64,000 nucleotides of DNA, from the NCBI GenBank assembly GCA_965205025.1, contig CBDBFU010000012.1, forward strand, positions 128,001 through 192,000, read 5' to 3'. Below are positions 4,305 through 53,582 of the stretch, piece after piece. Both the position numbers and the translations under genes were made by a program. This stretch comes from Candidatus Poribacteria bacterium. GTDB taxonomy: Bacteria > Poribacteria > WGA-4E > WGA-3G. The notes under the pieces are model-generated. The model saw only the letters and a list, made by a program, of their open reading frames with translations. It was not told the DNA's origin and ran no database searches. The number at the start of each line of letters is the position of its first letter. The stretch's first letter is position 1.

Positions 4305-4394
4305 TTTAGTTTGTGATCTTACTCCTTCCCCTCTCAAAACCCTCTTCTCCGTGTAATCCGCGATTCAGACAACCCAAACGGATCAGACATTCTT

Positions 4395-4555
4395 ATATAA
4401 TATTCAAAAAAAATTGAAGAAAACACCCATCTCTGACAACTAACATACATATATCACAAAAACAGAAAAACATATTAATAATATTTGTCAAAATGAAAAT
4501 AAAATTCGGGGTTATGGAAAAAAGATTATAGGTTAGAACACAAACTAAAAAACAG
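4395..4555. repeat. AT-rich dispersed repeat; inverted copy at ~34030-34160
   Basis: Shared sequence visible in both shadow translations (INMFFCFCDICMLVVRDGCFLQF vs IKMYLCFCDICMLVAIDGCFLHF). Confidence 0.7.
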
Positions 4556-6243: not shown

Positions 6244-6371
6244 TTTTCTGATGCATCTGAACTTCAGATCTCTCCGATTGGTGTACCGATGGGTGCACCC
6301 GCTGTATGGTGTGAAATTGTAGATTGAGAAGTCCTTAGATATACTCAATAAAACTAAACAAGGAGATAAAT

Positions 6372-7652
6372 ATGGCAAAGTCACCAAACATTGTTTTTAT
6401 TCTTGCTGACGATCACGGTTATGGTGATATCTCAGCACATAATGGACCCTCAATTCAAACACCACATATTGATAGGATCGCAGAAGACGGTATACGACTT
6501 ACCCAATTCTATGCAAACTCCTCTGTCTGTTCACCAAGTCGTGCATCGCTCATGACGGGTCGCTATCCGGATAGAGTTGGTGTTCCAGGTGTTATACGCA
6601 CACATCCAGAAAACAATTGGGGATATTTTCGACAGGATGCTATCACACTCCCATCTATATTAAAAGAGAAAGATTACAAGACATCCCTAATTGGTAAGTG
6701 GCATCTCGGACTTGAAGATGAAAATCACCCATGTAAAAGAGGATTTGATTATTTTCACGGCTTTCTCGGTGATATGATGGATGACTATTACACGCATCTT
6801 CGCCATCAGAATAACTATATGCGTCGTGATTTTGAAACAATTGACCCAAGAGGACACGCTACCGATCTATTCTCGGATTGGAGTGTTGAGTTTATCCAAG
6901 AACAATCACAATCCACACAACCCTTCTTTCTATATCTTGCTTATAATGCACCGCACACCCCGATCCAACCACCGAATGATTGGGTTGATAGAGTGAAGGA
7001 TCGTGAACCAGATATTTCAGAACAACGGGCAAAATATATAGCACTTGTTGAGCACATGGATGCTGGTATTGGACGGGTTCTTGATTCACTTGAAAAAACC
7101 AATCAACTCTCCAATACTCTTGTCATATATACTTCTGACAACGGAGGTCAAATGGGGGTTGGGGCACATAACGGTCCACTTCGAGGTCAGAAGGGTGAAA
7201 TGTATGAAGGCGGTATACGTGTACCTACCTGTGTCATGTGGGAAGGACATATTCCTGAAGGTTATGTATCAAATCAAGTGGGTATGATAATGGATTTTTA
7301 TCCTACACTCTGTGAAATTACGGGTATACCTATAAACCATGAAATTGAGGGACAGTCAATTTTGAAAACATTGCAAGGCGAAAAACAGGATTTATCCGAA
7401 CGTCTACTCTACTGGATACGAAGAGAGGGAGGACAACAGTTCTTAGGAGATTGCCAACATGCTGTTAGACAGGGGGACATAAAACTGCTACATAACAGAC
7501 CTTTTGAATCCCTTGAACTTTATGACTTATCAAACGATCCGATGGAAGCTACCGATACTGCCAAAACGAATACTGATCTTTTTAAAGAGATGGGGAATCT
7601 TTTCCAGCAAGAGACACAGAAATCAGGGGGCATTCCTTGGCAAAAAGCATAA
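6372..7652 (+). CDS. Arylsulfatase-family (Cys-type) sulfatase
   Basis: PNIVFILADDHG, CSPSRASLMTGRY, GKWHLG, SDNGG. Confidence 0.93.
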   Translation: MAKSPNIVFILADDHGYGDISAHNGPSIQTPHIDRIAEDGIRLTQFYANSSVCSPSRASLMTGRYPDRVGVPGVIRTHPENNWGYFRQDAITLPSILKEKDYKTSLIGKWHLGLEDENHPCKRGFDYFHGFLGDMMDDYYTHLRHQNNYMRRDFETIDPRGHATDLFSDWSVEFIQEQSQSTQPFFLYLAYNAPHTPIQPPNDWVDRVKDREPDISEQRAKYIALVEHMDAGIGRVLDSLEKTNQLSNTLVIYTSDNGGQMGVGAHNGPLRGQKGEMYEGGIRVPTCVMWEGHIPEGYVSNQVGMIMDFYPTLCEITGIPINHEIEGQSILKTLQGEKQDLSERLLYWIRREGGQQFLGDCQHAVRQGDIKLLHNRPFESLELYDLSNDPMEATDTAKTNTDLFKEMGNLFQQETQKSGGIPWQKA

Positions 7653-7938: not shown

Positions 7939-8655
7939 TTGAGCAGTGAAATGAATAACGATCTTGATGCAAAATTAAAAAAAATCTTGGATAGTGAAAC
8001 AAACTTAGATACGGATAAACCTGATGACACAGTAGATACTGTTGGAGATACCCCAATGGAGGACATGGAATTACATCAGATAAATACACTTACTGAGATT
8101 AACCAGTCTTTGACGGTATTACTCGAATTATTTGAAAAACACATATCTGGAAATCAGAATCAAGTCCAGATGTTTGATAAAATGTATGCCGAAATGAAGG
8201 ACTATAAAGAGAGTTTTCTACTTGAAGTACTTCATAAACCGGTTATCCATAACTTAATTCAACTCTACGATAGTTTTGTATCACTTGAATCTCAGCTTAC
8301 TAACCTTATTGATGAGAATAATGATAACACACTATTAAATGAGTTGGGGCAATATAGTAGTAATTTACAGAATTTTCGTTTTGAACTTGAAGAAGTTTTA
8401 TACCGCATGGATGTAACACCCTATAAGGATTCACCAGATACATTGGATAGGCAGTTACACAAGACACGGAAAGTCATATCTACTGACGATCCAAATTTGG
8501 ATCAGAAAGTAGCAGAAGTGCATAAAATTGGATTCTATTGGCGTGAGAAAGTATTTCGTCCGGAAGATGTAACCATTTATCGTTATACGGCCTCCACAGA
8601 AAAATCTGAACATCGTAATACTAAACATTCTTCAGATCAGCAAAGGGGAGATTAA
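7939..8655 (+). CDS. GrpE-like nucleotide exchange factor
   Basis: Coiled-coil N-half. C-terminal LDRQLHK...VAEVHKIGFYWREKVFRPEDVTI resembles GrpE FDP..H...V.EV.Q.GY....RVLRPA.V; abuts the Hsp70 gene. Confidence 0.85.
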   Translation: MSSEMNNDLDAKLKKILDSETNLDTDKPDDTVDTVGDTPMEDMELHQINTLTEINQSLTVLLELFEKHISGNQNQVQMFDKMYAEMKDYKESFLLEVLHKPVIHNLIQLYDSFVSLESQLTNLIDENNDNTLLNELGQYSSNLQNFRFELEEVLYRMDVTPYKDSPDTLDRQLHKTRKVISTDDPNLDQKVAEVHKIGFYWREKVFRPEDVTIYRYTASTEKSEHRNTKHSSDQQRGD

Positions 8656-10251
8656 ATGGGTAAAGTTGTCGGAATAGATTTAGGTACGACATTTTCTGTG
8701 ATAGCACATATAAATGAGCATGGACAACCTGAAATTATCCCCAATTTGGAAAGTGACCGAATCACACCATCGGTCGTAATGTTTGAAGACAATCTTGTAA
8801 CTGTTGGGAAAATAGCTAAGCAGAATGCCAGAGCTGTTCCTGAACAGATTGTTGAGTTTATCAAAAGGGAGATGGGTAAATCAAGAACGAATTTCTTCCG
8901 TACATTCGATGAAAAAGACTATTCCCCTGAAGAACTATCTGCGCTCATTTTGACGAAACTGAAACAGGATGCAGAAATCTATCTGAATGAAGAGGTAACT
9001 GATGCTGTAATCACTGTACCCGCGTATTTTCACGACGCAGAAAGGGAAGCCACCCGAAATGCAGGTAAAATTGCAGGTTTTAATGTGCTTCAAGTCTTGA
9101 ACGAACCGACCGCAGCTGCACTCGCTTATGGAATCGATCAACTGGGTAATAACCAAAATGTATTTGTATTCGACCTTGGTGGTGGTACATTTGATGTGAC
9201 AATTATGCAGGTCTCAGAAGCTGAAATACAAATGTTAGCAACAAATGGTGACCATAGGTTAGGAGGTAAAGATTGGGACGACAAAATCATTACTTATGTT
9301 GCTGAGATGTTTGAGATAGAACATGGAGAGAATCCTCTGGATGATCTACATACATATCAAGACCTTCAACTGGATGCAATTGGAGCCAAAGAATCCTTAT
9401 CTCAACGACAAAGAGCATTAATTGTATGTGGATATAATGGGAAAACAACTCGTGTCGAATTAATGCGCGAGAAATTTGAAGAACTTACGGCAGATCTACT
9501 TGAGAGATGTCGAACTTTGTGTGAATTAGTATTATCAGAGGCAGAAATGGCTTGGACTGATATTGATAAGATTTTATTGGTTGGCGGGTCGACACGGATG
9601 CCTATGGTACAAGAAATGATACGGACAATTAGCGATAAAGAGATTAATCCACATGAAGTTAATCCTGATGAAGTCGTCGCATTAGGCGCGGCTATCCAAG
9701 GAACTCTACGTCAAATCACTGATGATACTGTTGAAACACCGGAAATGCCTGAAGCTGTTATTGAACGGTTTATTGGACCGGATGGTGTGCCAAAAGTCAC
9801 TGTAACTGACGGTGCTACACATAATCTCGGTCTTGTTGTCCTCAATTCACAACGCGATTATATTATCCATGTTATGATACCAAAAATGACTGCTGTACCG
9901 TGTGAAATTGCTGATCAATTCTTGACTGTAGATGAGAACCAACCAACTGTACTAATTGAGGTGGTGCAAGGACTTGAACAGGATCAGATTAAAAACCAAA
10001 TCCCATTTTTTGATGAATATAAGTTGGGAGAATGCACGCTTGAGTTACCTAACGGATTGCCACAAGGATCTCCAATTGAGGTAAATTATAAATATAATTT
10101 AGACCAAAATCTTGAGGTAACAGCAAAATCATTGACAGATGACGGTCCTACTGCAGTTTTTGATATCTTTTCAATAATTGATAGACCAACACTTAATGAA
10201 GAAGAAGTTTCCCAAGCACAAACAGATCTGCAAGAACTTACAGTTGAATAA
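8656..10251 (+). CDS. Atypical Hsp70/DnaK-family chaperone (no C-terminal lid)
   Basis: GIDLGTT, TVPAYF, EPTAAA, DLGGGTFD, LVGGSTRMP motifs; only 531 aa. Confidence 0.93.
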   Translation: MGKVVGIDLGTTFSVIAHINEHGQPEIIPNLESDRITPSVVMFEDNLVTVGKIAKQNARAVPEQIVEFIKREMGKSRTNFFRTFDEKDYSPEELSALILTKLKQDAEIYLNEEVTDAVITVPAYFHDAEREATRNAGKIAGFNVLQVLNEPTAAALAYGIDQLGNNQNVFVFDLGGGTFDVTIMQVSEAEIQMLATNGDHRLGGKDWDDKIITYVAEMFEIEHGENPLDDLHTYQDLQLDAIGAKESLSQRQRALIVCGYNGKTTRVELMREKFEELTADLLERCRTLCELVLSEAEMAWTDIDKILLVGGSTRMPMVQEMIRTISDKEINPHEVNPDEVVALGAAIQGTLRQITDDTVETPEMPEAVIERFIGPDGVPKVTVTDGATHNLGLVVLNSQRDYIIHVMIPKMTAVPCEIADQFLTVDENQPTVLIEVVQGLEQDQIKNQIPFFDEYKLGECTLELPNGLPQGSPIEVNYKYNLDQNLEVTAKSLTDDGPTAVFDIFSIIDRPTLNEEEVSQAQTDLQELTVE

Positions 10252-10327
10252 ATTCCTTCACCAAATTACATTTTCTTAGATAATATCATTAGTATATCTT
10301 ACCTTAGTTAACCACAGGAAATTACGA

Positions 10328-11704
10328 ATGTCTGATCGAGATGAATTTATAGCCTTTGTAACAGATTTTAAAGTTGTCTCACTTACTATTTCGGACGAAC
10401 AACGTAAAGGTCTTTTACGTAGAGCAGTACATCAACACGGTCTTACTGTAGAAGAAGCATACAGAATATTAGATAAATCGGGACTTGTAATTGGAGAACA
10501 ACAGGTAGATTTTTTTCAAGTATTAGGTATACCCTTTGAAGAGATTAAAACTAAAACCGAATCGGAGATTACAGGATGTGTTGAGTCAACCCACAAGAGA
10601 CTATATAGAGAATCCCTGAATTCGGGTGGTCGTCCACGGCCAGATGGTAGGTCAGAAGAACAGTGGCGAAGATTATTAAATCAAGCACGTGATGTCCTTA
10701 TTGATCCCATTAAGAGGCAAGGACATATTGATGAACTAAATACTTATGATGATGAAGAGTTTAATGAGGATATATCAATTAAGCCAACCACTTCTATAAG
10801 CAATTCATCATTTAATGTTGAGGAAAGGGTTATACCAGCACACAAAAAACTTGTATATTCTGTTGTATTTTCACCTGATGGCACATGTGTTGCCAGTGGG
10901 AGTGCTGACAAATCAATATGTATCTGGGATATTCAGGCTGAAAAGCAGAAACATATTCTTAACGGTCATCATGATACAGTAACATCTGTTAGGTATTCCC
11001 CAGACGGTAAAACCATAGCAAGCGGGAGTTTTGACGGAACAGTATGTTTATGGAATGCTAAATCTGGAGAGTTGAAAAAACGTTTAACAGAACAAAAAGA
11101 TAAAATTAGTTCCCTTGCTTATTCACCTGATGGAAAAACAATTGCAAGTGGGAGTTATAATGGAACTATTCAATTATACAATGCTGAGACAGGAGAACCT
11201 AAAATCCTCCTCAAAGGACATAAGAATTGGGTTAGTTCAGTTGTGTATTCACCTGATGGAAAAACAGTTGCATGTGCAAGTTATGATGGGAATGTATATT
11301 TATGGAATACTGAATCAGGCGTAAATATGCATGTCCTAACAGGTCATAAATTTAGTGTTATCGCAGTAACTTATTCACCTAATTCTGATACAATCATTAG
11401 TATTGATCTACAAGGAACAATTCTGGCATGGAATGCTATTTCTGGAAAACAAAAGAAACTCTCAACGGGGTTCATGTCCTGGGTTAGTTCAGTAGTTTAT
11501 TCCCCAGATGCAACGAATCTAACATGTGGTAGTTTTCATGGATCAATCACTTTATGGAATACAGATACATGGGAGGAAGTAAGAACTATTACAGGGCATA
11601 CCTCAACTGTAAAAGCACTATCCTACTCTCCAGATGGAAGGATTCTGGCAAGCTGCGGTGGAGACGGTAATGTACGAATTTGGAGTTCATCATTATACGA
11701 ATAA
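10328..11704 (+). CDS. Helical N-domain + divergent J-domain + WD40 beta-propeller
   Basis: DFFQVLGI...GGRPRPDGRSEEQWRRLLNQARDVLIDPIKR; about seven SPDG/WD repeats. Confidence 0.85.
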   Translation: MSDRDEFIAFVTDFKVVSLTISDEQRKGLLRRAVHQHGLTVEEAYRILDKSGLVIGEQQVDFFQVLGIPFEEIKTKTESEITGCVESTHKRLYRESLNSGGRPRPDGRSEEQWRRLLNQARDVLIDPIKRQGHIDELNTYDDEEFNEDISIKPTTSISNSSFNVEERVIPAHKKLVYSVVFSPDGTCVASGSADKSICIWDIQAEKQKHILNGHHDTVTSVRYSPDGKTIASGSFDGTVCLWNAKSGELKKRLTEQKDKISSLAYSPDGKTIASGSYNGTIQLYNAETGEPKILLKGHKNWVSSVVYSPDGKTVACASYDGNVYLWNTESGVNMHVLTGHKFSVIAVTYSPNSDTIISIDLQGTILAWNAISGKQKKLSTGFMSWVSSVVYSPDATNLTCGSFHGSITLWNTDTWEEVRTITGHTSTVKALSYSPDGRILASCGGDGNVRIWSSSLYE

Positions 11705-11788
11705 TACCTATTCAAGCTGCCGATCATTAATGACAGAATACTACAACTGAATTATTCTTGTTCATAGAATTTCTAATAGGTTTAATTA

Positions 11789-13030
11789 ATGTCCCAACGC
11801 GATGAATTCTTTGCATTTATTAATACTCTCAAAGATGCATCACCTACGATTACTGATGAACAACGAAAAGGCTTTCTCAGACTTGCAGTTGAAAAATATG
11901 GTTTAACTGTTGATGAAGCAACATCTATATTTAATGCATCGGGTATAATAATTGGGGAAATAGTTGATCTACTTGAAATCTTTGGATTAACTATCACAGA
12001 GATTAAGAGATATAATCAATCTGAAATTGTCGATCGCGTTGAGTCAATCCACAGTAAACTATATAGTGAATCTTTAAAGTCCGGTGGTCGTCCGCGTCCA
12101 GATGGTAGGTCAGAAGAACAGTGGCGAAGATTATTAAATCAAGCACGAGACACACTAACTGACTCAAAGAAACGGCACGAATATCTTACCACACTCCAAA
12201 TTAAAGAACCCTCCTTTGATATAGCATCAGGAAGCACAAGTCTTGAGGATATGTCACTTATTCATAAAGGTGAATTTGAAATGGGTAGCAATGATGACGA
12301 GGCTTTTGATGATGAACATCCGGTTCATACCGTTTTTCTTGACGAATTCTATATTGACCAATATCCTGTAACCAATGCACAATACAAGGCATTCCTTGAT
12401 GCAAGACCACAGTGGAGTAGACATGAAATTCCAAAAGAGTATTGTGATGTTGACTATCTAAAGCATTGGCGTTGGGATAGTTTTCCGAAAGGAGAAGCAG
12501 ATTATCCTGTTGTCAATGTAAGTTGGTATGCTGCTATGGCTTATGCTCAATGGAGAGGCAAACGTCTTCCAACTGAAGCTGAATGGGAAAAAGCTGCACG
12601 AGGTGATCTAATTGGCAATAAATATCCATACGGTAATTCAGTAGATCCCACTCAAGCGAATTATGACTGGAATGAGGGAAATACCACACCCGTTGGCAAA
12701 TATCCTTCAAATGGATATGAACTCTATGACATGTGCGGTAATGTTTGGGAATGGTGCCTTGATAAATATGAGAAATATTATTATAGAAACTCACCGACTC
12801 GTAACCCTATTGCTGGTGAAGATACTATTCACCAGTTGAATAGCAACTACTTAGAGATTGAATCTAACCGAGTATTACGGGGTGGTTCATGGCGTATACC
12901 TGCCTTATTAGTAAGAACAGCAAAACGTAATGCTGAATCACCATGGTTTTCACTGAATGTAATTGGATTTCGATGTGTATATCAGGTCTTACTTAAGGAT
13001 ATGTCTCCTTTACCTCCTTCCGTTATATGA
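11789..13030 (+). CDS. Divergent J-domain + FGE-sulfatase (SUMF1/CLec-fold) domain protein
   Basis: RPD J-like motif; GEFEMG, PVTN, RLPTEAEWEKAARG, DMCGNVWEW, RGGSW, GFRC. Confidence 0.88.
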   Translation: MSQRDEFFAFINTLKDASPTITDEQRKGFLRLAVEKYGLTVDEATSIFNASGIIIGEIVDLLEIFGLTITEIKRYNQSEIVDRVESIHSKLYSESLKSGGRPRPDGRSEEQWRRLLNQARDTLTDSKKRHEYLTTLQIKEPSFDIASGSTSLEDMSLIHKGEFEMGSNDDEAFDDEHPVHTVFLDEFYIDQYPVTNAQYKAFLDARPQWSRHEIPKEYCDVDYLKHWRWDSFPKGEADYPVVNVSWYAAMAYAQWRGKRLPTEAEWEKAARGDLIGNKYPYGNSVDPTQANYDWNEGNTTPVGKYPSNGYELYDMCGNVWEWCLDKYEKYYYRNSPTRNPIAGEDTIHQLNSNYLEIESNRVLRGGSWRIPALLVRTAKRNAESPWFSLNVIGFRCVYQVLLKDMSPLPPSVI

Positions 13031-13061
13031 ACTATCTTAACTTCTATATCAAAATTAGACT

Positions 13062-14447
13062 ATGCTAAAACGTAATGAGTATATAGACTTTATTAATCAA
13101 TTTAGAACTGTATCTCCAACTATCACAGATGAACAAAGGATTGGTCTTCTGCGACGAGGTGTTCAACAACATGGTCTATCAATTTCTGAGGCAGAGAAAA
13201 TAATTCTATCATCAGGATTAATTATCGGTGAACAGATAAATTATTTCGATATATTCGGTTTATCCATAGAAGATTTACAGAATAAAAACGAGGAGTTAAT
13301 TACAGCAGAAGTTGATACGATACACAGAAATCTATATAACGCTTCCTTAAAAGCAGGAGGTCGTATACGATCAGATGGCAGGACAGAAGAACAGTGGCGG
13401 ATCATATTAAATGAAGCACGCGATACTCTCAAGAATGTTGAAAAACGAAAATCTCATATTGAAATGCTACAATCCGATGTTCTACCTCCGATTGAAATCC
13501 TATTTGAAGATTCTCCTCTACAAGAAACTGACACAACACAAGAAACAATTCAAACACAACCAACCGAACAGTCAAGTGTGTTGCCATCTGTAAAAGTACT
13601 TCCTGAAGATGAATCTATACAAGAAACTGACACCCTTGAAGAATCTAATTTAACACAACCCGTAATAGAAGATGGTATGGCACTCATTCCTGCCGGAGAA
13701 TTTCAAATGGGGAGTGATGACATTGAGGCATACAATGACGAAAAACCTGTACATACTGTATACATAGATACATTCTTTATTGATCAATATCCTGTCACGA
13801 ATGTAGAATATCAAGAGTTTATTGATACCAATCCTGAATGGCGTAAACCCAAAAAGTGGTATGATAATACTGAAATTATTGCCGGTATTCACAAGAAATA
13901 TCATGACGGTGATTACCTAAAGACTTGGAAAAGAAACAATTTTCCAAAAAATGAAGATCATCATCCTGTAACTTGGGTGAGTTGGTATGCAGCCATGGCT
14001 TACGCACAGTGGAAAGGTAAAAGACTACCAACGGAAGCTGAATGGGAAAAAGCTGCACGAGGTGGTTTGACAGGACAGAAATATCCATGGGGAAATACCA
14101 TAAGCCTCAATCATCTAAATTACGATCTATATATCAGTAATACTACAGAAGTAGGTCAATACCCTGAAAATGGTTATGGTATTTATGATATGGCGGGGAA
14201 CGTATTTGAATGGTGCATAGATTTATGGGATGAAAACTTCTATACTAATTCTCCATACAATAATCCTGTCGCTGATGGATATTTAGCAGATATATTAGCT
14301 GATTTCACAAGCGCAATTACACCGAGAGTTGTGCGGGGTGGATCTTCTGTAAGTACTCCGAGAAACACACGTGTTTCATATCGACATAGAAATACTCCTA
14401 AACTGACATGTTTTAGTATTGGATTCCGTTGTGTAAGATCTAAATAA
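13062..14447 (+). CDS. Divergent J-domain + FGE-sulfatase domain protein
   Basis: RSD J-like motif, acidic linker, FGE-fold motifs. Confidence 0.88.
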   Translation: MLKRNEYIDFINQFRTVSPTITDEQRIGLLRRGVQQHGLSISEAEKIILSSGLIIGEQINYFDIFGLSIEDLQNKNEELITAEVDTIHRNLYNASLKAGGRIRSDGRTEEQWRIILNEARDTLKNVEKRKSHIEMLQSDVLPPIEILFEDSPLQETDTTQETIQTQPTEQSSVLPSVKVLPEDESIQETDTLEESNLTQPVIEDGMALIPAGEFQMGSDDIEAYNDEKPVHTVYIDTFFIDQYPVTNVEYQEFIDTNPEWRKPKKWYDNTEIIAGIHKKYHDGDYLKTWKRNNFPKNEDHHPVTWVSWYAAMAYAQWKGKRLPTEAEWEKAARGGLTGQKYPWGNTISLNHLNYDLYISNTTEVGQYPENGYGIYDMAGNVFEWCIDLWDENFYTNSPYNNPVADGYLADILADFTSAITPRVVRGGSSVSTPRNTRVSYRHRNTPKLTCFSIGFRCVRSK

Positions 14448-14500
14448 ACTACATTTTTATCAAATTTTTACTAATTTTTCATATATAAATTATTCTATCT

Positions 14501-15721
14501 ATGGCTGAAAGCAAAGAATTCATAGCATTTGTTAATAGATTAAAGACACTGTCACCGACCATAACCGAAGAGCAGCGTATTGGTCTTCTACGTCAAGGTA
14601 TGCAGGAATATAACCTCACCTCAGATGAAGCGGAAAATATTCTGAAAACATCAGGATTAATTGTTGGTGAACAAGATAATTATTTTGATGTCTTAGGAAT
14701 CTCAATTGAAGAATTTGAAGAACTTAGTGAAGCAGATATTATTGCGTATGTAGAATCCATCCACGACAAACTTTACAGAGCATCTTTGAATGCAGGAGGT
14801 CGGCCAAGGTCTGATGGTAGGACAGAAGAAGAGTGGCGGACACTACTAAATCAAGCACGAGATACATTAATAGATCCTGATATACGACGATTACACAATT
14901 CAACATTACAACAAACAGAAAATTCCTTAGATGATGGAATAACACATCTAAGTTCTGAAAATATGGTGTTAATCCCTGAAGGAGAATTTCAGATGGGATG
15001 TGATGATTATCAATCTGATAAGAGTGAGAAACCTGTCCATACTGTTTATGTTGATGCATTCTATATAGACTCTTTTCCGGTAACGAATCTACAGTACAAA
15101 TTATTTCTGGATGCGAACCCTCAGTGGAAATCTCCTAAAATAATTGATATTTATAGGATGCGAAAATATCGAGATACAGACTATTTGATGACTTGGGATA
15201 GGAACAAAGTTCCAACAGGAAAGGAAGAACATCCTGTAACTTGGGTGAGTTGGTATGCAGCTATGGCTTATGCTCAATGGTTAGGTAAAAGATTGCCAAC
15301 AGAAGCAGAATGGGAAAAAGCAGCACGTGGTGGCTTAGAAGAGAAAAAATATCCATGGGGTAATTCGATTGATGATTCCTATGCAAATTTTGGTATAAAC
15401 ATCGGTGAGACAACCCCAATTGGTAATTATCCTGCTAACAATTATGAAGTATACGATATGGTAGGGAATGTATCTGAATGGTGTTTAGATAAGTGGGATG
15501 AAAAATTCTATAGTTATTCACCACATATTAACCCAATTGCAGGTGGAAGTACTGAAAGGATTATAGAGACACATTCAAAATTAAGAGAGGAACGTGTAAT
15601 CAGAGGGGGTTCATGGCATACTGACCTTGAAGACCTACGAATATCCTACAGAACAGGATTAGCACCTTCAAAAACAGAAAGTTTTATAGGATTTCGTTGT
15701 GTGAAACCTATTAACCAGTAA
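14501..15721 (+). CDS. Divergent J-domain + FGE-sulfatase domain protein
   Basis: RSD J-like motif; FGE-fold motifs. Confidence 0.88.
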   Translation: MAESKEFIAFVNRLKTLSPTITEEQRIGLLRQGMQEYNLTSDEAENILKTSGLIVGEQDNYFDVLGISIEEFEELSEADIIAYVESIHDKLYRASLNAGGRPRSDGRTEEEWRTLLNQARDTLIDPDIRRLHNSTLQQTENSLDDGITHLSSENMVLIPEGEFQMGCDDYQSDKSEKPVHTVYVDAFYIDSFPVTNLQYKLFLDANPQWKSPKIIDIYRMRKYRDTDYLMTWDRNKVPTGKEEHPVTWVSWYAAMAYAQWLGKRLPTEAEWEKAARGGLEEKKYPWGNSIDDSYANFGINIGETTPIGNYPANNYEVYDMVGNVSEWCLDKWDEKFYSYSPHINPIAGGSTERIIETHSKLREERVIRGGSWHTDLEDLRISYRTGLAPSKTESFIGFRCVKPINQ

Positions 15722-15763
15722 ACCAATTATTTCTCTTGTTAAAGACCTAATTGAGGATCAAGA

Positions 15764-17053
15764 ATGCGTGAATATGAAGAATTTATCTCTGTTATCAATA
15801 CACTCAAAGTACTATCACCAATAATAACTGAAGCGCAACGTATTGGTCTTCTGCGACAAGGTGTGCAGGAATATGGTCTCACTACAGATGAAGCGGAAAA
15901 TATTCTGAAAACATCAGGATTAATTGTTGGTGAACAAGATAATTATTTTGATGTTTTAGGAATCTCAATTGAAGAACTGGAAAATCTCAGTGAAGCAGAT
16001 GTCGACGCACATGTTGAATCTGTCCACGACAAACTTTACCGAACATCTTTGAATGCAGGAGGTCGTCCGCGGTCTGATGGTAGAACAGAAGTAGAGTGGC
16101 GAAACCTTTTAAATCAAGCAAAAGATACAATAACAGATCCCTTAAAAAGAAGTGAATATATTTACATTCTACAACAGGATAGAATAAAGGATATACCTAC
16201 TGAAACATCACAGGAATTGGAATCATCTGAGGCAAACACAATACCTCATGCATTAAGTAGTACATTTATACAGGATGGTATTGAGGTGCCTGATGATATG
16301 GTATATATACCAGCAGGAGAATTCCAAATGGGGAGTGAACATGCAGATGCAGAGGAGGATGAACAACCTATTCACACAGTTTTTGTTAATGCATTTCTTA
16401 TGGATAAATATCCTGTGACAAATAGGAAATTTAGAGAATTTCTGAATACTAATCCTGAGTGGCGGAAACCTGATGATATAATTAATCATATAAGATGGAA
16501 TTATCATGACGGTTCATATTTGAAGGATTGGCAGATGAATATGTATCCACCTGGGAAAGGTGATCATCCAGTGACACAGGTGAGTTGGTATGCTGCGATG
16601 GCGTATGCAGAATCTGTAGGTAAGCGTTTACCGACTGAAGCGGAATGGGAAAGAGCAGCACGCGGTGGCTTGGATGGTAAACACTATTCATGGGGTAATG
16701 TTGAAGATTTTGCTAATGCAGATGAGTATTTAAATGCTGAAGATAATTTGCCAATCGGCCTTACACCTGCCAATAATTATGGACTTTATGACATGTGTGG
16801 CAATGTATGGGAATGGTGTCTTGATGCATATAATGAGGATTTCTATAATGATACACCACAGAATAACCCATTTTATGGACCTAACAGCATAGAATGGGTA
16901 ATAGAACATTTTAGACGTATAACAATCGAACGTGTATTACGCGGAGGTCCTTGGGGTTTTGAAACTATAGGTGCACGAGTATCACAACGACTCAAAAGTG
17001 CCCCAACCGATACTTTACCTACTTACAGTTTTCGTTGTATAAAATATATTTGA
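15764..17053 (+). CDS. Divergent J-domain + FGE-sulfatase domain protein
   Basis: RSD J-like motif; FGE-fold motifs (ends YSFRC). Confidence 0.88.
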   Translation: MREYEEFISVINTLKVLSPIITEAQRIGLLRQGVQEYGLTTDEAENILKTSGLIVGEQDNYFDVLGISIEELENLSEADVDAHVESVHDKLYRTSLNAGGRPRSDGRTEVEWRNLLNQAKDTITDPLKRSEYIYILQQDRIKDIPTETSQELESSEANTIPHALSSTFIQDGIEVPDDMVYIPAGEFQMGSEHADAEEDEQPIHTVFVNAFLMDKYPVTNRKFREFLNTNPEWRKPDDIINHIRWNYHDGSYLKDWQMNMYPPGKGDHPVTQVSWYAAMAYAESVGKRLPTEAEWERAARGGLDGKHYSWGNVEDFANADEYLNAEDNLPIGLTPANNYGLYDMCGNVWEWCLDAYNEDFYNDTPQNNPFYGPNSIEWVIEHFRRITIERVLRGGPWGFETIGARVSQRLKSAPTDTLPTYSFRCIKYI

Positions 17054-17117
17054 TAGGTATGGTCTTTTTGATAGAATAATTTCATAGAATATTGAAATAT
17101 AAATAGACTTACTAAAC

Positions 17118-18407
17118 ATGGCAAAACGTGAAGAGTTCATTCAGCTTATCAACACTTTTAAAACGGTGTCAGACACAATAACAGACAATCAAAGACGTGG
17201 TCTGTTGCAACAGGCTGTACAGATCTACGATCTCTCTATTGAAGAAGGTATAGAGATATTGGATTCATTAGGAATAGTTGTCGGCGATGAGATAAATTAT
17301 TTTGAGATATTAGGACTATCCCTTGAGGACATACAAGACAAGGATGACCACTCGGTTACTGATATTGTTAAAATAGCACATGATGACTTGTATAAAGTCT
17401 CCTTAACTGCTGGAGGACGGGTCAGATCAGATGGAAGGACTGAAGAACAGTGGCGAATACTACTGAACCAAGCGCGGAATATTCTGGGTGATAAAGAAAA
17501 AAGAAACGAATACATATCAACCCTTCTTCAAGAAGAATCTGAAGAATTTACAACTCCGAATACACCTACTATTCCGGGTACCGAACCTAATTCTATACAG
17601 ACGAGTGAAATTGTATCTGAACTGACCTCTCATATAATAATAGATCCTGACGATATTGAAATCCCGACTGAAATGGTATTGATCCCTTCAGGAGAATTTA
17701 TGATGGGATCTCATAGTGAAGAAATAAATGGTAGTGATTTATCATTACATAGTGTGTATGTAAATGGATACCTAATTGATAAATATCCTGTAACTAATTC
17801 TGAATTCCGTATTTTTCTCACAGAGAACGAACAATGGCAGAAAAACAACATACCCAATGAATTTCACAATGGTAAATACCTTAGTTCTTGGAACGGGAAT
17901 ATCTATCCAAGAAATAAAGACAATGATCCGGTTGTCGACGTAAGTTGGTATGCTGCCATGGCTTATGCTCAATGGATAGAGAAACGACTTCCAACAGATA
18001 TTGAATGGGAAAAAGCTGCACGTGGAGGGTTAACTGAAAAAACGTATCCCTGGGGTGATGATATTACTAACGACCTGGCGAATTACGGAATGATTGTTGG
18101 GAATACAACCCCTGTTGGCACCTATCCTCCAAATGAGTATGGTGCGTATGATATGGTTGGCAATGTGTGGGAATGGTGCCTTAATCATTATGAACATATT
18201 GAAGCATTTAGTAAACCAAGTATATCTGTTGAACAGATTGGTGATATCTTAGATTCCTACTTAGAAGTCGAAAGCAATCGTGTGTTACGTGGAGGGTCTT
18301 GGGCAAGTAGTGAACGAGCTCTTAATGTTGCATATAGAGGTAGTGCTGCCCCTGATTATACATATTACAGCTACGGGTTTCGATGTGTTAAGGATATTCA
18401 TGGGTAA
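17118..18407 (+). CDS. Divergent J-domain + FGE-sulfatase domain protein
   Basis: NYFEILGLS...RSD...LNQARNILGDKEKRNEY; FGE-fold motifs. Confidence 0.88.
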   Translation: MAKREEFIQLINTFKTVSDTITDNQRRGLLQQAVQIYDLSIEEGIEILDSLGIVVGDEINYFEILGLSLEDIQDKDDHSVTDIVKIAHDDLYKVSLTAGGRVRSDGRTEEQWRILLNQARNILGDKEKRNEYISTLLQEESEEFTTPNTPTIPGTEPNSIQTSEIVSELTSHIIIDPDDIEIPTEMVLIPSGEFMMGSHSEEINGSDLSLHSVYVNGYLIDKYPVTNSEFRIFLTENEQWQKNNIPNEFHNGKYLSSWNGNIYPRNKDNDPVVDVSWYAAMAYAQWIEKRLPTDIEWEKAARGGLTEKTYPWGDDITNDLANYGMIVGNTTPVGTYPPNEYGAYDMVGNVWEWCLNHYEHIEAFSKPSISVEQIGDILDSYLEVESNRVLRGGSWASSERALNVAYRGSAAPDYTYYSYGFRCVKDIHG

Positions 18408-18467
18408 AATATCTTCAACTCTAATGTACATCTAATTTTCAGAGTTCATCTTTTTGGAACTGTATTA

Positions 18468-19845
18468 ATGGCAAAACGAGAAGAATTTATAGATGCAATC
18501 AATTTGTTTAGATCTGCCTCACAGTCCATTTCGGTAGAACAACGGATAGGACTTTTACAACAAGCTGTACAAGAGTATGGACTATCAATAGAAGAAGCAG
18601 AGGGGATAATCAAAGAAACAGGATTAAATGTCGGTGGTGCTATTAATTACTTTAGAGTCTTAGGTTTGTCAAATCACGAATTTGAAAATCTGAACGAAAC
18701 CACTATTACATCAATTATAGATGACGCACATAAACAACATTATACAGAATCATTAAGGGCAGGTGGCCTTCCTCGTCCTGATGGGAGAACCCAAGAACAG
18801 TGGAGAAATATCTTAAATCACGCACGCGATACTTTAATTGATCCACATAAACGCGAAGAATATCTATCACAATTATTGAGTGAAGAAGATTCATCTGATA
18901 GTCTCATTAATGATGTGTCCAACAATAATACCACTGATACGGAAATCTATAATCAGAATCATAACCAGACAGTCTCAATTGATAATAAAGCACAATTAAA
19001 TACATGCACCTTCGATTGTAAAAAATAAAAAAGTATTTACCCATCATGAATCACCTGCAAATATGGTACAAATCCCTGCTGGTGACTTCAGAATGGGTAG
19101 TAATAATGAAAAAGTTAGTAATAGAGAAAAACCTGCACATGTCGTGTATATTGACGAGTTTTTTATAGACACTAATTTAGTTACCAATGCAGAATATAAA
19201 GAGTTTGTAGATGCCAATCCACAATGGACAAAACCAACAAAATGGTTTCACTTAGAGAAAAAGATGAAATCTTATATACCTGAGAAATACCATGATGGTG
19301 ATTATCTAAAACATTGGAATGAGAATACATATCCTGATGAGAAAGCAGAACATCCTGTGACATGGGTGAGCTGGTATGCCGCAATGGCGTATGCTGAATG
19401 GGTGGCTAAACGTCTCCCAACAGAGGCAGAATGGGAAAAAGCTGCACGCGGTGGAATAACTGGACAGAATTATCCTTGGGGAGAATCAATTGATTATACT
19501 AAGGCTAATTATAATAGCTATATTGGTGAAACAACTTCTGTCGGTCAGTATCCTGCAAACGGATATGGAATTCATGATATGATAGGAAATGTCTGGGAAT
19601 GGTGTCTTGACGAGTATCAGGAAAATTACTATGCAAGTTCAGAACGCAAGAACCCAATTTGTGGTCCAAATACGGTTGAATCAATAGAATATAGTGATAT
19701 AGATAATAGACATGCACGGGTAATGCGAGGAGGTTCTTGGCTGGATGCCTCTCAATTCGTCCGTTCTGCATCCCGTTACAGGAACACACCTACACGTACA
19801 CTCGCAAGAATTGGGTTTCGTTGTGTCAAGTCTGCAACATCATAA
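18468..19845 (+). pseudogene. Divergent J-domain + FGE-sulfatase gene split by one frameshift (possibly a sequencing error)
   Basis: 18468-19028 carries the J-like part and 19063-19845 the FGE part. The second frame is open back to ~19003 (HAPSIVKNKKVFTHHESPANM). Confidence 0.8.
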
Positions 19846-19907
19846 TCCCGATAACTTCTTCATTGCAAATTTAGTTACACCTACATGTTTAATTACTGGT
19901 GGTACGT

Positions 19908-21299
19908 ATGTCAAATCGTGATGAGTTTATTGCTGTCGTAAATACACTCAAAACACTCTCTAATACAATTACAGATGAACAGAATAGAAGTCTATTACAG
20001 CAGGCAGTCCACGATCATGGTCTCTCAGTAGAAGACGCCTTGGAGATAATCGATTCATTAGGGATAATTGTTGGGGAAAAGATAAACTACTTAGAGATCT
20101 TAGGGTTTTCTATTGAAGATTTAAGTTCACAAGATGAATCTAACATTACTAAAATGCTTGAAATTGCCCATAAAAAATACTACTCTGAATCATTACAGTC
20201 GGGTGGGTTACCACGACAGGATGGGAGAACTCAAGAACAGTGGCGTACAATTCTAAATCAAGCCTATGATACATTGAAAGATCCAATAAAACGCAAGGAA
20301 CATATTGAAACCGTACAAACTGAGTCATCTCATGAGGAGAACACATCAACTATAGTAACCGAAATATCTGAACCTAAAGATACCTCATTACAAGTTGCAG
20401 TTCCAGAAGAAATGGTCTTAATTCCATCTGGGGATTTTCAGATGGGTAATAGTAATGAAAATGCAAATATACGCGAAACACCGGTACATATTGTCAATAC
20501 TGATGCATTTTATATTGACAAATATCCAATAACAAATGAACAATATAAAGCGTTTATAGATGCAAACCCATTATGGCGGAAACCATCTGAAGGATTGTGG
20601 TTATATCTTCAAAAATGGTATGAAAAAGGGAACGTTCGATTTCGATATAACTACATATATGATAAATATCATGATGGAGTGTATCTGAGACATTGGAGAC
20701 ATAATAGGTTCCCTCTTGAAACAGCTAATCATCCTGTTACCCATGTAAGTTGGTATGCTGCAATGGCGTATGCACAATGGGTTGGCAAACGTCTGCCAAC
20801 AGAAGCAGAATGGGAGAAAGCTGCACGGGGAGGGATAAATGGTCAGAAATATCCTTGGGGTGATTTAATGAATTCCAACATGGCAAATTGTAATGAGGAT
20901 GCAGATAAAACCACACCTATAGGAAAGTATCCTGCAAATAATTTCGGTGTTTTTGATATGGTTGGAAATATATGGGAGTGGTGCATTGATGAATATGTAA
21001 TGGATTTTTATACATCCTCTACATCTCTGAATCCTATCGCAGGCGTGGACTCAAAGGAGGACTTGGACAATTTCATTCTCAATTTTAGAGACGTAGATAG
21101 TGATCGTGTTTTGCGAGGTGGTACATCCTTTATTTCATCTGAACCTATCCATACTGCCGCACGTTGGGGTGGAACACCTATTCTTACTGAACATATTGCT
21201 TCCTATTCAACTAAGTATTTAGATACATTTTCAAGGCCAATCGCAGCAAACATTGGCTTCAGATGTGTATGGGATACAAACGTAAAAACGAATTCTTAA
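19908..21299 (+). CDS. Divergent J-domain + FGE-sulfatase domain protein
   Basis: RQD motif, LNQAYDTLKDPIKR; FGE-fold with insertions. Start MSNRDEF chosen by paralog alignment. Confidence 0.88.
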   Translation: MSNRDEFIAVVNTLKTLSNTITDEQNRSLLQQAVHDHGLSVEDALEIIDSLGIIVGEKINYLEILGFSIEDLSSQDESNITKMLEIAHKKYYSESLQSGGLPRQDGRTQEQWRTILNQAYDTLKDPIKRKEHIETVQTESSHEENTSTIVTEISEPKDTSLQVAVPEEMVLIPSGDFQMGNSNENANIRETPVHIVNTDAFYIDKYPITNEQYKAFIDANPLWRKPSEGLWLYLQKWYEKGNVRFRYNYIYDKYHDGVYLRHWRHNRFPLETANHPVTHVSWYAAMAYAQWVGKRLPTEAEWEKAARGGINGQKYPWGDLMNSNMANCNEDADKTTPIGKYPANNFGVFDMVGNIWEWCIDEYVMDFYTSSTSLNPIAGVDSKEDLDNFILNFRDVDSDRVLRGGTSFISSEPIHTAARWGGTPILTEHIASYSTKYLDTFSRPIAANIGFRCVWDTNVKTNS

Positions 21300-21326: not shown

Positions 21327-23663
21327 ATGAATTCATATCCAAAAGAGAGATTGATTATGAAAAACAAAAATAGTTACATATTATGGTATAACAAACCAGC
21401 ACAAGAGTGGACAGATGCCCTACCCGTTGGGAATGGACGACTTGGGGCAATGGTGTTTGGGGGAGTAGAACAGGAACGGATCCAACTTAATGAAGAGAGT
21501 CTTTGGGAAGGATGTTTTCAGGATACAAATAATCCTAAGGCACTGCAAGCACTTCCAATTGTCCAACAATTGTTGTTTGAAGACAAAAATGATGAAGCCA
21601 CAACACTTGCTGGTGAAACGATGCTGGGTGTTCCACATCGGATAAAATCTTATCAGTCTTTAGGCGATATTATTATTGATTTTACTAATCATAGTGAAAT
21701 TACAGAATATCACCGGGAACTGGATTTAGATACAGGTATAGCAAAGACAACCTATCAAGTCGGTAATGATAATATCAATAGAGAAGTCTTCGCAACTGCT
21801 GTCGATGATATCATCGTTATCCGTATAGAATCCGATTCAGCCAATGCTGTTAGTTTTGATGTTACAATGACACGAGAACAGGATGCCTCGGTTGCATGCA
21901 TATCTGACAAAATCCTTAGACTTGATGGAGAATGTAGTGATGGTGGTCTACGTTTTTCTGCATATCTGAAGGCAAATGTTGATGATGGAAAAATAGAATC
22001 GAATGAAGATAAAATTTCTATTCGTTCTGCAAGTAGTGTAACATTGCTACTGTCTGGTGCAACGAGTTATATTAATCAGAAAGATGCAACGGGTAATCCA
22101 CATGAATTGTGTGAAGGTCATCTGTCATCAGTAGAAAACAAATCTTATGACAAATTACGTTCTGACCACATACAGGAACATCAATCTCTATTTCAAAGAG
22201 TAGACATAAACCTCGGTTCAAGCGATGCGGATAATCTACCTACAGATGAACGTCTAACAAAGGTAAAGGAAGGTGACTCTGACCCAGGGCTTGTTTCACT
22301 ATATTTTCAGTTTGGACGTTATCTTTTAATGGGGAGTTCAAGACCCGGATGTCTCCCAGCCAACCTGCAGGGGGTTTGGAACCATCACATGAAAGCCCCA
22401 TGGAACAGCGATTACCACACCAATATTAATCTACAAATGAATTACTGGGTTCCAGAAGTATGCAATCTCGCTGAATGTCATAAGCCGTTATTTGATTATA
22501 TGGATACACTCGTTGAACCTGGAAGTGAGACAGCAAAACGCCATTATGGTGCAGGGGGTTGGGTAGTTCATCACTTATCTGATATATGGGGATTTACAAC
22601 ACCAGCGGATGGTATTTGGGGGATATCACCTGTAGGTGCTGCATGGTTGAGCGAACATGTATGGGAACATTACCTGTTCGGTGGTGATGAGAAATTTCTT
22701 AGAGAACAAGGTTATCCACTCATGAAAGGTGCCGCACGTTTTATGCTTGATTTTCTAATTGAAGCACCAGAAGGTACACCTTTCGCTGGAAAACTTGTAA
22801 CGAATCCATCCCATTCACCTGAAAACAGTTTTCAAAAAGCTGATGGTACACGTTCACTATTCACTTATGCCGCAACAATTGACCTTGAGATTATACATGA
22901 ACTCTTCACAAATTGCATAGACTGTCTTGATGTACTCGGTATTGACGCGGATTTCCGAGAAGAATTAGTTTCATCTCTGGATCGGTTGGCACCACTACAG
23001 ATTAGTGAAAAAACAGGTAGACTGCAGGAGTGGATATATGACTATGATGAACCGGAACCAGGACATAGACATATGTCACATATGTATGGTCTACATCCAA
23101 GTTGTCAAATAACACTACGTGGCACTCCTGAGTTGGCAGAGGCAGCACGAAAATCTTTGGAATATCGATTGCAACATGGTGGCGGACAAACAGGATGGAG
23201 TCGGGCATGGTTGGTAAATTTCTTAGCACGACTTGAAGACGCAGAAGAAGCGTATAACCATTTACATGCACTCCTTGCAAGGTGTACCTTAACAAACCTG
23301 TTTGATACCCATCCACCATTCCAGATTGACGGAAACTTTGGGGGAACAGCAGGAATTGCTGAGATGCTTATACAAAGTCATGACGGAGAGATTAACCTAC
23401 TCCCCGCACTGCCAAAAGAATGGAATACCGGTTATGTTAAAGGGTTGCGTGCACGCAGTGGGTTTGAAGTGGATATGGAATGGGAAAATGGTACTCTTAC
23501 TAAGTCGATAATTTCTTCTCAACTTGGTAGGGAATGTACTGTTAGAACAACGGAAACTGTTTCGGTGTCGTGTGATAATGAAAAAATTGAATCAATTCAA
23601 TCTAATTCAGTGACAACATTCAGTACAGAGATTGGAAAAACCTACATAATATCTACTACATAG
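21327..23663 (+). CDS. Glycoside hydrolase family 95 (alpha-1,2-L-fucosidase-like)
   Basis: [50 protein letters not shown]. Confidence 0.93.
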
Positions 23664-24724: not shown

Positions 24725-25060
24725 TACCCAAGTTGCTACTAAGGGATTCTGATCGTTTCAACACAGTTTTCAGACACTTTCCTCACCCCAGATGAAGTTA
24801 AAAAAATAAAATAGGTAATTTGGACCCAGAGCTGGTAGGTGTGGTTTCCTAACCGCACCATAGGCGTCAATTTAGGAGAAAAAATGTTGTATCCCAGGCC
24901 GGTAGGTGCGGTTTCCCAACCGCACTATTAGGCCTCAATTTTAGACTATGACTTTATTGGTTTTGAGTCCCGTAGGGACGGAATGTCTATAGAAAAAGGT
25001 ATATCAACATCCTGCACTCCAGCGGAGTGCTATGTAAGTAAATAGGTGGCAACTTGGGTT
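24725..25060. mobile_element. Composite MITE-like element containing REP hairpins and orphan IS ends
   Basis: Terminal inverted repeat ACCCAAGTTGC(T/C)AC / GTGGCAACTTGGGT; internal REPs at 24834 and 24901. Confidence 0.55.
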
Positions 25061-53514: not shown

Positions 53515-53582
53515 AGGAAAGGTTAAACAAACGTGAGTTTAATAAAACAGATATTAATGCTCGGTGCGGTTAGGAAACCGCA

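Follow-up and report, generated by a model that had tools for sequence, protein, structure and literature searches.

What might eight adjacent bacterial genes be doing with as many copies of a J-domain-like module, none of which has the His-Pro-Asp (HPD) motif, and with which chaperone would such a module work? The question is posed by a stretch of 64,000 nucleotides (nt) from the genome of a Candidatus Poribacteria bacterium of the sponge-symbiont type (assembly GCA_965205025.1, contig CBDBFU010000012.1, positions 128,001 to 192,000), referred to below as the window, in which the eight paralogous genes form an array at 10328-21299 on the + strand. Their products begin with a common module of ~140 amino acids (aa), residues ~56-140 of which make up the J-like domain, and continue into various C-terminal domains, here called heads. 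The reading that we favor, with a probability of roughly 0.6, is that the module is a lineage-specific and strongly diverged J-domain without HPD that couples the eight adaptor proteins to a dedicated Hsp70 encoded immediately upstream. A preliminary description of the locus had proposed a cryptic J-domain in which HPD is replaced by R-x-D.

The sequence relation of the module to J-domains was found to be one of remote homology over helices I-IV. When 205 distinct family domains (each at least 70 aa, from proteins P0001-P0221) were aligned by hhalign with 22 canonical J-domains of the same phylum, the match had a probability of 96.1% (E 3.7e-9, 62 columns, helices I-IV), and 119 family sequences compared with the same 22 domains gave 91% (E 1.1e-6). 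Seven controls reached at most 1.0% (N-domain, 0.3%; five column shuffles, 0.1-1.0%; reversed, 0.1%). The alignment extended from helix I, where NYFxVLG faced DYYxVLG, to the DPxKR of helix IV. In addition, a profile search of the PDB with the alignment of the eight paralogs returned 22 matches at E <= 10, of which 18 were J-domain proteins; the best was HscB (4it5, E 0.016), and E. coli DnaJ chains were found at E 0.2-0.6. The eight-sequence profile also matched P0178, a canonical protein with six DnaJ repeats (E 1.2e-15 summed; PF00226 E 1.2e-121), and the nearest clusters in the ESM Atlas were named "DnaJ domain-containing," at a cosine of 0.81 that the tool rates as a lead at best. The cryptic J-domain of the preliminary description was thus upheld by profile-profile, PDB profile, and fold matches that agree, and its expectation that a standard Pfam scan could miss the domain was correct, none of the eight paralogs being matched by PF00226 at E <= 1. 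Moreover, NCBIfam had no family for the N-terminal module, a precomputed PF00226 domain was present in 0 of 120 homologues, and PF00226 detected only two canonical genes in the source genome, both of them elsewhere.

The predicted fold pointed the same way. An AlphaFold2 (AF2) model of paralog 4, residues 1-145, with a mean predicted local distance difference test (pLDDT) score of 85.2, contained J-like helices at 61-64, 69-73, 77-97, 109-124, and 126-144 and a loop at 98-108, which in the model make up a four-helix J fold with a helix II-III hairpin; ahead of it lay an N-domain of three helices (2-17, 23-36, and 41-51). A structural match to J-domains was looked for and found: the best Foldseek matches in the PDB were J-domains (probability up to 0.99, with weak E values of 0.3-2), and VIA-align gave Z scores of up to 9.7, with 35 of the 40 top rows named J-domain, DnaJ, Hsp40, or HscB and the remaining five belonging to large complexes with titles that leave the matched chain unnamed. 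Against the DnaJ J-domain of the DnaK complex (5nro_B), 63 of 63 residues were aligned (Z 7.6, root mean square deviation 2.8 A). Since middling Z scores are common for helical models, reliance is placed on the sequence and fold evidence combined and not on Z alone.

The array is part of a run of 11 close-packed open reading frames (ORFs) on the + strand at 7939-21299, with gaps of 0-84 nt, in the order GrpE-like gene, Hsp70 gene, and eight paralogs:

7939..8655, + strand: GrpE-like gene, 238 aa, Pfam GrpE; its stop abuts the Hsp70 start (gap 0 nt)
8656..10251, + strand: atypical Hsp70, 531 aa, PF00012; nucleotide-binding domain (NBD), altered linker, and beta part of the substrate-binding domain (SBD-beta), without the helical lid
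10328..11704, + strand: paralog 1; N-domain, J-like domain at 10493-10750 with loop at 10622-10654, WD40 propeller
11789..13030, + strand: paralog 2; N-domain, J-like domain at 11954-12208 with loop at 12080-12112, domain like the formylglycine-generating enzyme (FGE)-sulfatase family
13062..14447, + strand: paralog 3; N-domain, J-like domain at 13227-13481 with loop at 13353-13385, FGE-like domain
14501..15721, + strand: paralog 4, the modeled copy; N-domain (aa 1-55), J-like domain at 14666-14920 with loop at 14792-14824, FGE-like domain
15764..17053, + strand: paralog 5; N-domain, J-like domain at 15929-16183 with loop at 16055-16087, FGE-like domain
17118..18407, + strand: paralog 6; N-domain, J-like domain at 17283-17537 with loop at 17409-17441, FGE-like domain
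18468..19028, + strand: N-terminal part of paralog 7; N-domain, J-like domain at 18633-18887 with loop at 18759-18791, low-complexity tail, stop
19063..19845, + strand: C-terminal part of paralog 7; FGE-like domain alone (PF03781 E 1.2e-63), in a frame different from that of 18468-19028
19899..21299, + strand: paralog 8; N-domain, J-like domain at 20073-20327 with loop at 20199-20231, FGE-like domain; start at GTG 19899 or ATG 19908

The N-terminal modules were 44-54% identical to that of paralog 1, and paralogs 4 and 5 shared 83% nt identity over the first 300 nt of paralog 5. A search of the source genome found exactly eight J-like copies, all of them in the array. The frame of the ORF that holds only the FGE-like domain of paralog 7 was open for ~20 codons upstream of its ATG; the split could represent a frameshifted pseudogene, an assembly indel in the low-complexity linker, or two real genes.

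HPD was present in none of the eight paralogs, and all of them had a loop of the form [S/A]GG[R/L][P/I/V]R[P/S/Q]DGR[T/S]. The translated loops were SGGRPRPDGRS (twice), AGGRIRSDGRT, AGGRPRSDGRT (twice), AGGRVRSDGRT, AGGLPRPDGRT, and SGGLPRQDGRT, so that the earlier reading of R-[P/S/Q]-D in all eight copies, and HPD in none, was exact for the window. Invariant columns (paralog 1 numbering) included H89, Y93, S96, L97, G100, G101, R104, D106, G107, and R108 and, beyond these, W113, R114, L117, N118, A120, and R130. Mean pairwise identity among the paralogs was highest in the loop (0.77), followed by helix III-IV (0.57), the N-domain (0.52), the FGE-like domain (0.49), and helix I-II (0.42), which agrees with the earlier claim of a highly conserved loop. 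Helix II, described beforehand as longer and less basic, did span 21 residues (77-97) in the model and had a net charge of -3 to 0 in the eight paralogs, compared with +2/+3 in the 22 canonical J-domains of the phylum. The earlier consensus was slightly idealized: in place of its "LY," paralogs 7 and 8 have HY or YY, its "KR" is IR in paralog 4, and paralogs 1 and 2 have DFF or DLL as the helix I motif.

The claim that R-x-D replaces HPD stood in part. A new conserved loop does lie in the place of HPD, and a one-to-one correspondence of HPD with R-x-D was not obtained: in both hhalign runs HPD fell opposite G99-G100-(R/L)101 (paralog 4 numbering), with R103-x-D105 following four residues later, and a HMMER alignment to HscB put HPD earlier still, at Y-x-x. 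Because the placement differs between the two programs, the loop alignments are soft; in the model, loop 98-108 holds both GG(R/L) and RxDGR. The pattern was not a product of chance, given the eight copies in the source genome, the conservation of the loop, and 104 cluster representatives, among 1.84 billion proteins, that matched at E <= 0.001. The same features were seen in the wider family. HPD was found in 0 of the 205 family domains, compared with 99% of wild-type J-domains according to the available part of PMC13580251. The R-x-D-G pattern occurred in 176 of the 205; about six more had R-x-D outside the reach of the pattern search, and about 17 to 24 had a short or different loop without R-x-D.

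The Hsp70 encoded between the GrpE-like gene and paralog 1 was a member of its family (PF00012 E 2.7e-121, profile positions 1-514 of 599) and was one of two Hsp70s in the source genome, the other being a 643-aa DnaK encoded elsewhere to which it is 38% identical. The catalytic residues K70, E171, D194, T199, and D201 were the same in the atypical protein and in E. coli DnaK. The canonical DnaK equivalog features (lid, hydrophobic VLLLD linker, and R167) were absent: the protein ends at DnaK-equivalent residue 525 and therefore lacks the lid, has an insertion of ~25 residues ahead of the linker in the alignment with E. coli DnaK, and carries the changes R167Q, E206Q, E217Q, D477K, D479N, and VLLLD to VTVTD (DnaK numbering). 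NCBIfam HscA and DnaK models scored it at 328-425 bits (410-425 for the DnaK models) against cutoffs of 648-822. The GrpE-like protein matched Pfam GrpE (PF01025) at E 2.2e-8, with 34.4 bits against a cutoff of 25.8, and had no match in NCBIfam.

According to the available part of Mayer (2021; PMC8215388), DnaJ touches DnaK at E206, D211, E217, D477, L391, P419, R167, and Q378. Among 120 homologues of the atypical Hsp70, position 167 was Q in 118 and H in 2, position 477 was K in 99 and R in 6, and position 479 was N in 119; in the linker (390-392), L390T was present in 116, L391V in all 120, and L392T in 106. Position 206 was more varied (K 51, E 31, Q 15, R 11, and N 9), as was position 217 (Q 66, K 33, E 20, and R 1). 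Q378, P419, N170, T173, K414, and D393 were retained. The Hsp110 linker is likewise noncanonical and polar according to the portion of PMC13580251 consulted; the likeness of VTVTD to it is a remark of this analysis and is putative. A second Hsp70 paralog, 46-54% identical, was seen upstream of the GrpE-like gene in some related loci (L037, L038, L059, and L060); in L060 (2428-4518) it keeps R167 and has a C-terminal extension of ~200 residues that by eye resembles a von Willebrand factor A (vWA) domain.

The module was found to be tied to its cognate Hsp70 by a conserved operon and by co-occurrence. Two profile searches, one with the J-like domain and one with the diverged C-terminal half of the atypical Hsp70, were run over the same 81 genomes of the phylum. 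The J-like domain was present in 33 of the 81 genomes, with 1-13 copies in each (3-13 in all but four) and mostly in tandem; the atypical Hsp70 was also present in 33. A total of 32 genomes had both and 47 had neither, and the two discordant genomes had either weak J-like matches only (G074) or an Hsp70 fragment with an internal stop only (G009). Among the matches listed, a J-like gene was preceded, on its own strand and within 3.2 kb, by the Hsp70 gene in at least 29 of the 32 genomes with both, the relevant rows for G005, G077, and G083 not being among those matches. The presence of GrpE-like and lidless Hsp70 genes directly ahead of the array points to a private chaperone system in which many adaptors can replace one another. 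Together, the loop, which is the most conserved segment, and the linkage to the cognate Hsp70 argue for altered function rather than decay, as the preliminary description had held.

When a second subfamily was used to scan public genome contigs, 27 loci were obtained, 26 from Poribacteria and 1 from Latescibacteria. The atypical Hsp70 was encoded upstream in 17 of these, including the Latescibacteria locus, and the other 10 loci were mid-array; a full GrpE-like gene just upstream of the Hsp70 was seen in 7 of the 17 (L034, L035, L037-L039, L058, and L059). In this subfamily the J-like domain stands at the very N terminus, without the N-domain, its loop reads YAN(V/I)PRxDG(R/K/L)T, and its C-terminal domains include FGE-like, ankyrin, tetratricopeptide repeat (TPR)/PEGA, peptidoglycan-binding, and SH3 domains. 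Natural fusions were also found: P0200 joins an Hsp70 NBD to an N-domain and a short-loop J-like domain, and L060:4331-6313 joins an NBD to an N-domain and a GrpE-like C terminus.

Binding of the module to the neighboring Hsp70 was supported, at the level of a model, by a complex prediction in which the Hsp70 (54-sequence alignment), the paralog 4 J-like segment (8-sequence alignment), ATP, and Mg were supplied. The score was 0.70, compared with 0.04 for the best of three controls; of the solved complexes, 58 of 80 attain this mark, as do 2 of 110 mismatched pairs, counts that are only roughly valid here. Three runs scored 0.38, 0.70, and 0.73, agreed in at least 89% of contacts, and gave a partner pLDDT of at least 82. 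The confident contacts of the module were R93, L96, N97, A98, G99, G100, R101, P102, S104, T108, and R113, so that the predicted contact segment is SLxAGG(R/L)P. On the Hsp70 the predicted contacts were residues 63, 66-68, 79-83, and 201-238, equivalent to DnaK 63-68, 90-94, and 226-263, which we take to be parts of NBD subdomains IB and IIB. The predicted docking site thus lies away from the canonical J site formed by NBD subdomain IIA, the linker, and SBD-beta, and the predicted interface differs from the solved J-Hsp70 interface.

The residues at this predicted site were checked for consistency with the model. Seventeen of 20 predicted Hsp70 contact positions differed from those of the housekeeping DnaK, and the contact positions were identical in the Hsp70s paired with either loop-bearing subfamily. 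The Hsp70s of two loopless J-like partners (P0200 and L060, two related sequences) differed at positions 66, 67, 201, 209, and 234, with Y234 changed to N or R. The J-like partner from Latescibacteria kept SLAAGGKP and had no RxDGR, and its Hsp70 kept Y234.

The homology to the J-fold, the loss of HPD, the conserved loop, the operon with its co-occurrence, and the altered Hsp70 interface are shown by the data; from these the favored reading infers binding, a binding site, specificity, and a biological role. Each adaptor consists of a three-helix N-domain, a J-fold module, and a variable, probably noncatalytic binding domain, and would meet a private Hsp70 in which the ATPase residues are kept and the canonical J-contact residues are changed. 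The loop at the hairpin tip, SLxAGG(R/L)P-RxDGR, would dock each adaptor on this private Hsp70 and not on the housekeeping DnaK, and one ATP-driven motor could in this way be aimed at the targets of the different C-terminal domains. In the model, docking would occur on NBD subdomains IB/IIB, where exchange factors also bind.

Several observations weigh against this reading or its parts. No match to PF00226 was obtained even at E <= 1, every single PDB sequence match had an E value of at least 0.016, and no Foldseek match reached E <= 0.001, the signal lying in the ranking and not in the E value; for VIA-align, the tool itself warns that Z scores below about 8-13 are common for helical models. 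The 120 Hsp70 homologues behind the residue counts are all at least 69% identical, so that they are not independent events, and neither are the genome counts, since the positive genomes are kin from one family-level group. Some family members with short loops that lack R-x-D retain the same operon, and the loop is thus not indispensable for the family. The complex score is a model and not a measurement, from a method calibrated without ligands or user alignments; one of the three runs scored 0.38, and, because solved J-Hsp70 complexes exist, the pass may partly reflect family likeness. R103 and D105 of R-x-D lay outside the confident contacts. In addition, we know of no precedent for a J-domain at the IB/IIB site. 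In the 1DKG crystal structure, as given in the available part of PMC10825016, GrpE contacts the IIB helix 255-272, and the predicted site would therefore overlap the exchange-factor face.

The most serious competitor, still live although we consider it doubtful, keeps the module at the canonical site. It holds that a working J-domain engages NBD subdomain IIA, the linker, and SBD-beta and raises the ATPase activity of its cognate Hsp70, the part of HPD being taken by R-x-D or by the GGxxRxDGR loop as a whole and the interface having coevolved to be orthogonal, possibly through inverted charges. Both sides of that interface have indeed changed: helix II is neutral or acidic where canonical J-domains are basic, and the Hsp70 is K or R at position 477 in 105 of 120 homologues and at position 206 in 62, with 33 K and 66 Q at position 217, a pattern that resembles charge inversion and not random loss. 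R167, the partner of D35 according to the part of PMC8215388 available, is Q in nearly all homologues, the allosteric residues Q378, P419, K414, and D393 are kept, and the order GrpE, Hsp70, and J-protein mirrors that of classical chaperone operons. However, the complex prediction put the module on IB/IIB with closely agreeing runs, hhalign pairs HPD with GG(R/L) and not with R-x-D, and the window's own Hsp70 has Q, not a basic residue, at both 206 and 217. The linker that HPD contacts has itself changed from VLLLD to VTVTD, which may imply a different allosteric regime. A bolder form of the IB/IIB docking deserves about the same tentative standing. It would have the J-fold repurposed, so that its tip plugs adaptors into the IB/IIB face of a lidless, Hsp110-like Hsp70 and no longer triggers the ATPase at the canonical site; the GrpE-like protein may then compete for that face. 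Such a system would amount to an Hsp70-powered, modular recognition machine with up to 13 swappable heads per genome (FGE-like, WD40, ankyrin, and TPR), which might act in sponge-symbiont immunity or host interaction.

That the module is instead a relic J-fold without Hsp70 contact, serving as a scaffold or oligomerization unit while the Hsp70 acts on the adaptors as clients or is unrelated to them, appears unlikely. Such a relic would explain the complete absence of HPD from the family, given that replacement of H or D in HPD abolished stimulation in every system tested (available part of PMC8215388), and HPD-less J-like proteins with non-Hsp70 partners are known, for example, in the Pam16-Pam18 pair (partial view of PMC3806816). 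It sits poorly with the tight co-occurrence and fixed order with the atypical Hsp70 and GrpE-like genes, with the fusion P0200, in which an Hsp70 NBD is joined to the N-domain and the J-like module, with a tip loop more conserved than the helices, with a complex prediction that beat all of its controls, and with the lack of a canonical J-protein in the operon. Still less credible, indeed very improbable, is a convergent or chance resemblance of an unrelated helical hairpin. The missing Pfam and NCBIfam matches, the weak E values at the single-sequence level, and the modest ESM Atlas cosine would all be expected of it, but chance would also have to account for a profile-profile match spanning helix I to helix IV at 96.1% with all seven controls at or below 1.0%, for the predominance of J-domain proteins among both the PDB profile matches (18 of 22) and the top structural rows (35 of 40), and for the recovery of the canonical six-repeat protein P0178 by the eight-sequence profile.

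Of the eight adaptors, paralog 1 carried a WD40 propeller as its head, and all others had an FGE-sulfatase-like domain, which in paralog 7 was encoded by the split-off part. The seven FGE-like domains (12200-21299) matched PF03781 at E 7e-58 to 1.2e-63 and FGE structures in the PDB at E around 1e-32; PorK and TvpA were also among their PDB matches. The active-site cysteine pair of FGE is catalytic. A cysteine pair between RGGxW and GFRC was found in 0 of the 7 domains, and in the alignment with the T. curvata FGE (6s07), LCHESYC faced W--HTD-L in paralog 4. A role as a true FGE, or sulfatase-maturation enzyme, was rejected on this ground, and the domains are unlikely to be formylglycine-generating enzymes. 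The variable heads are probably noncatalytic binding domains, the FGE-like ones of the C-type-lectin fold, and the enzymatic role implied by the annotation of homologues as "formylglycine-generating enzyme family protein" or "SUMF1/EgtB/PvdO family nonheme iron enzyme" is probably overstated. Given the sulfatase gene upstream (6372-7652), the FGE-like heads may bind sulfatase clients. An origin of the FGE-like variation through a diversity-generating retroelement (DGR) was considered and rejected, no near-identical pair of template and variable repeats being present in the window; no reverse transcriptase was found among the scanned ORFs, which were part of those in the window.

Candidate relatives of the N-domain (aa 1-55) were discarded as weak matches only (RecX, Z 5.6; HIV integrase N-terminal domain, Z 5.0-5.6), and a profile search of the PDB returned nothing for it. 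The N-domain appears to be mobile: it follows the Hsp70 NBD in P0200 and in L060:4331-6313, and it stands after, not before, the J-like domain in several proteins, such as P0162, P0174, P0176, and P0217.

The array is set among carbohydrate- and sulfate-utilization genes (1151-7652 and 21327-23663), which include GH32, UxuA-like, sulfatase (6372-7652), and GH95 genes, the last starting 27 nt after paralog 8; an N6/N4 DNA methylase gene lies at 3003-3857. Farther along the window, two large WD40-repeat genes, at 58302-61238 (978 aa) and 61250-63418 (722 aa), come after a DDE transposase gene (56862-58217); their WD40 repeats share DNA similarity with those of paralog 1 (repeat families D7 and D9). 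A trypsin-like peptidase fused to TPR repeats is encoded at 36236-37666, with four tandem copies of the TPR-coding repeat at 36364-36873 (204-nt unit, 102-nt spacing). A 922-aa protein encoded on the - strand at 49750-52518 has N-terminal sigma-70 regions 2 and 4, followed by a long extension to the C terminus in which Sortilin/Vps10-like and DUF6242-like matches were found. Short intergenic repeats with the palindrome-like core GGTTTCCTAACCGCACC occur at 24833-24887, 30675-30729, and 53558-53612 and also at 381-482, 4176-4277, and 30615-30716; they may be repetitive extragenic palindromic (REP)-like elements.

The family-wide replacement of HPD by another loop that is just as conserved, together with contact changes in a private Hsp70, offers a natural experiment on the rewiring of J-Hsp70 specificity and signaling, and the two proteins could be a ready-made orthogonal chaperone/cochaperone pair. 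Docking on IB/IIB, if true, would add a new mode of contact between J-folds and Hsp70s. The biological role may lie in immunity, in host interaction, or in client-specific chaperoning, for example, of sulfatases. Dozens of Poribacteria proteins annotated as "formylglycine-generating enzyme family," which lack the catalytic cysteines and are probably not FGEs, are also given a context by the analysis, and Pfam-based censuses of bacterial J-proteins miss the family.

Compared with canonical J-domains (PF00226), the module shares the four-helix hairpin, the (N/D)Y(F/Y)xVLG motif of helix I, and LNxA(R/Y)xxLxDPxKR in helices III-IV, and, as in canonical J-domain proteins, it stands at or near the N terminus of multidomain proteins and is linked to Hsp70 and GrpE genes. 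It differs from them in its lack of HPD throughout the family, its acidic or neutral helix II of ~21 residues, a short additional helix between helices I and II, an 11-residue loop, its position below Pfam detection, and, in the window, the 55-aa N-domain ahead of it. The J-proteins HscB and DjlB/DjlC keep HPD. The HscA-HscB and HscC-DjlB/DjlC systems resemble the present one in having a second Hsp70 with a shortened lid and dedicated J-proteins, as described in the available parts of PMC8215388 and PMC13580251. Unlike HscA and HscC, the window's Hsp70 has R167Q and a polar linker, and its score with the HscA model was far below the cutoff.

A J-fold without HPD that is kept by selection is also known from eukaryotic proteins of the type IV or J-like class, such as Pam16/Tim16; in the portion of PMC3806816 available, Pam16 pairs with Pam18. 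Proteins of the Pam16 type act singly, as regulators paired with a true J-protein, whereas the operon of the array has no true J-protein, its replacement loop is nearly invariant, and its relatives occur as 3-13 tandem copies per genome with different binding domains. The nearest parallel in the literature consulted, the GTPase-centric conflict systems of Kaur et al. (2020, eLife, PMC7159879; in the part of that article consulted), likewise combine an extra HSP70 and GrpE with a J-domain fused to a variable protein and use FGS (FGE-like), WD40, TPR, and ankyrin domains as variable binding modules with N-terminal adaptor domains. Those systems have an ordinary DnaJ domain fused to a fibronectin type III (FNIII)-repeat protein, have GAP1-N2 GTPases, and come from actinobacteria and firmicutes; in the window, no GTPase, vWA-MoxR, or DGR element was seen among the scanned ORFs or by repeat comparison. 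Noncatalytic proteins of the FGE fold, namely, type VI secretion system (T6SS) immunity proteins, DGR variable proteins, and PorK/GldK, also use the fold as a binding module (PDB matches to PorK and TvpA; available part of bioRxiv 10.1101/2021.05.21.445229), but the FGE-like heads described here are cytoplasmic by their architecture, with no signal peptide evident, and are fused to a J-fold module.

In PADLOC-DB, to which 5 of the 11 operon proteins were compared, the Hsp70 had a marginal match (PDC-M61B, E 0.0009), the WD40 head had a repeat-type match, and no family was found for the N-terminal module. At the level of titles and abstracts, no description of the module or operon was found in the literature, although PMC7159879 may contain relevant material in its figures and source data. 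Since HPD-less J-like proteins and specialized Hsp70/J pairs are both known, the system belongs to no new category. Its novelty lies in four features found together: the replacement loop hardly varies, the Hsp70 has changed to match, the genes have expanded in tandem to up to 13 copies, and curated models do not detect the family.

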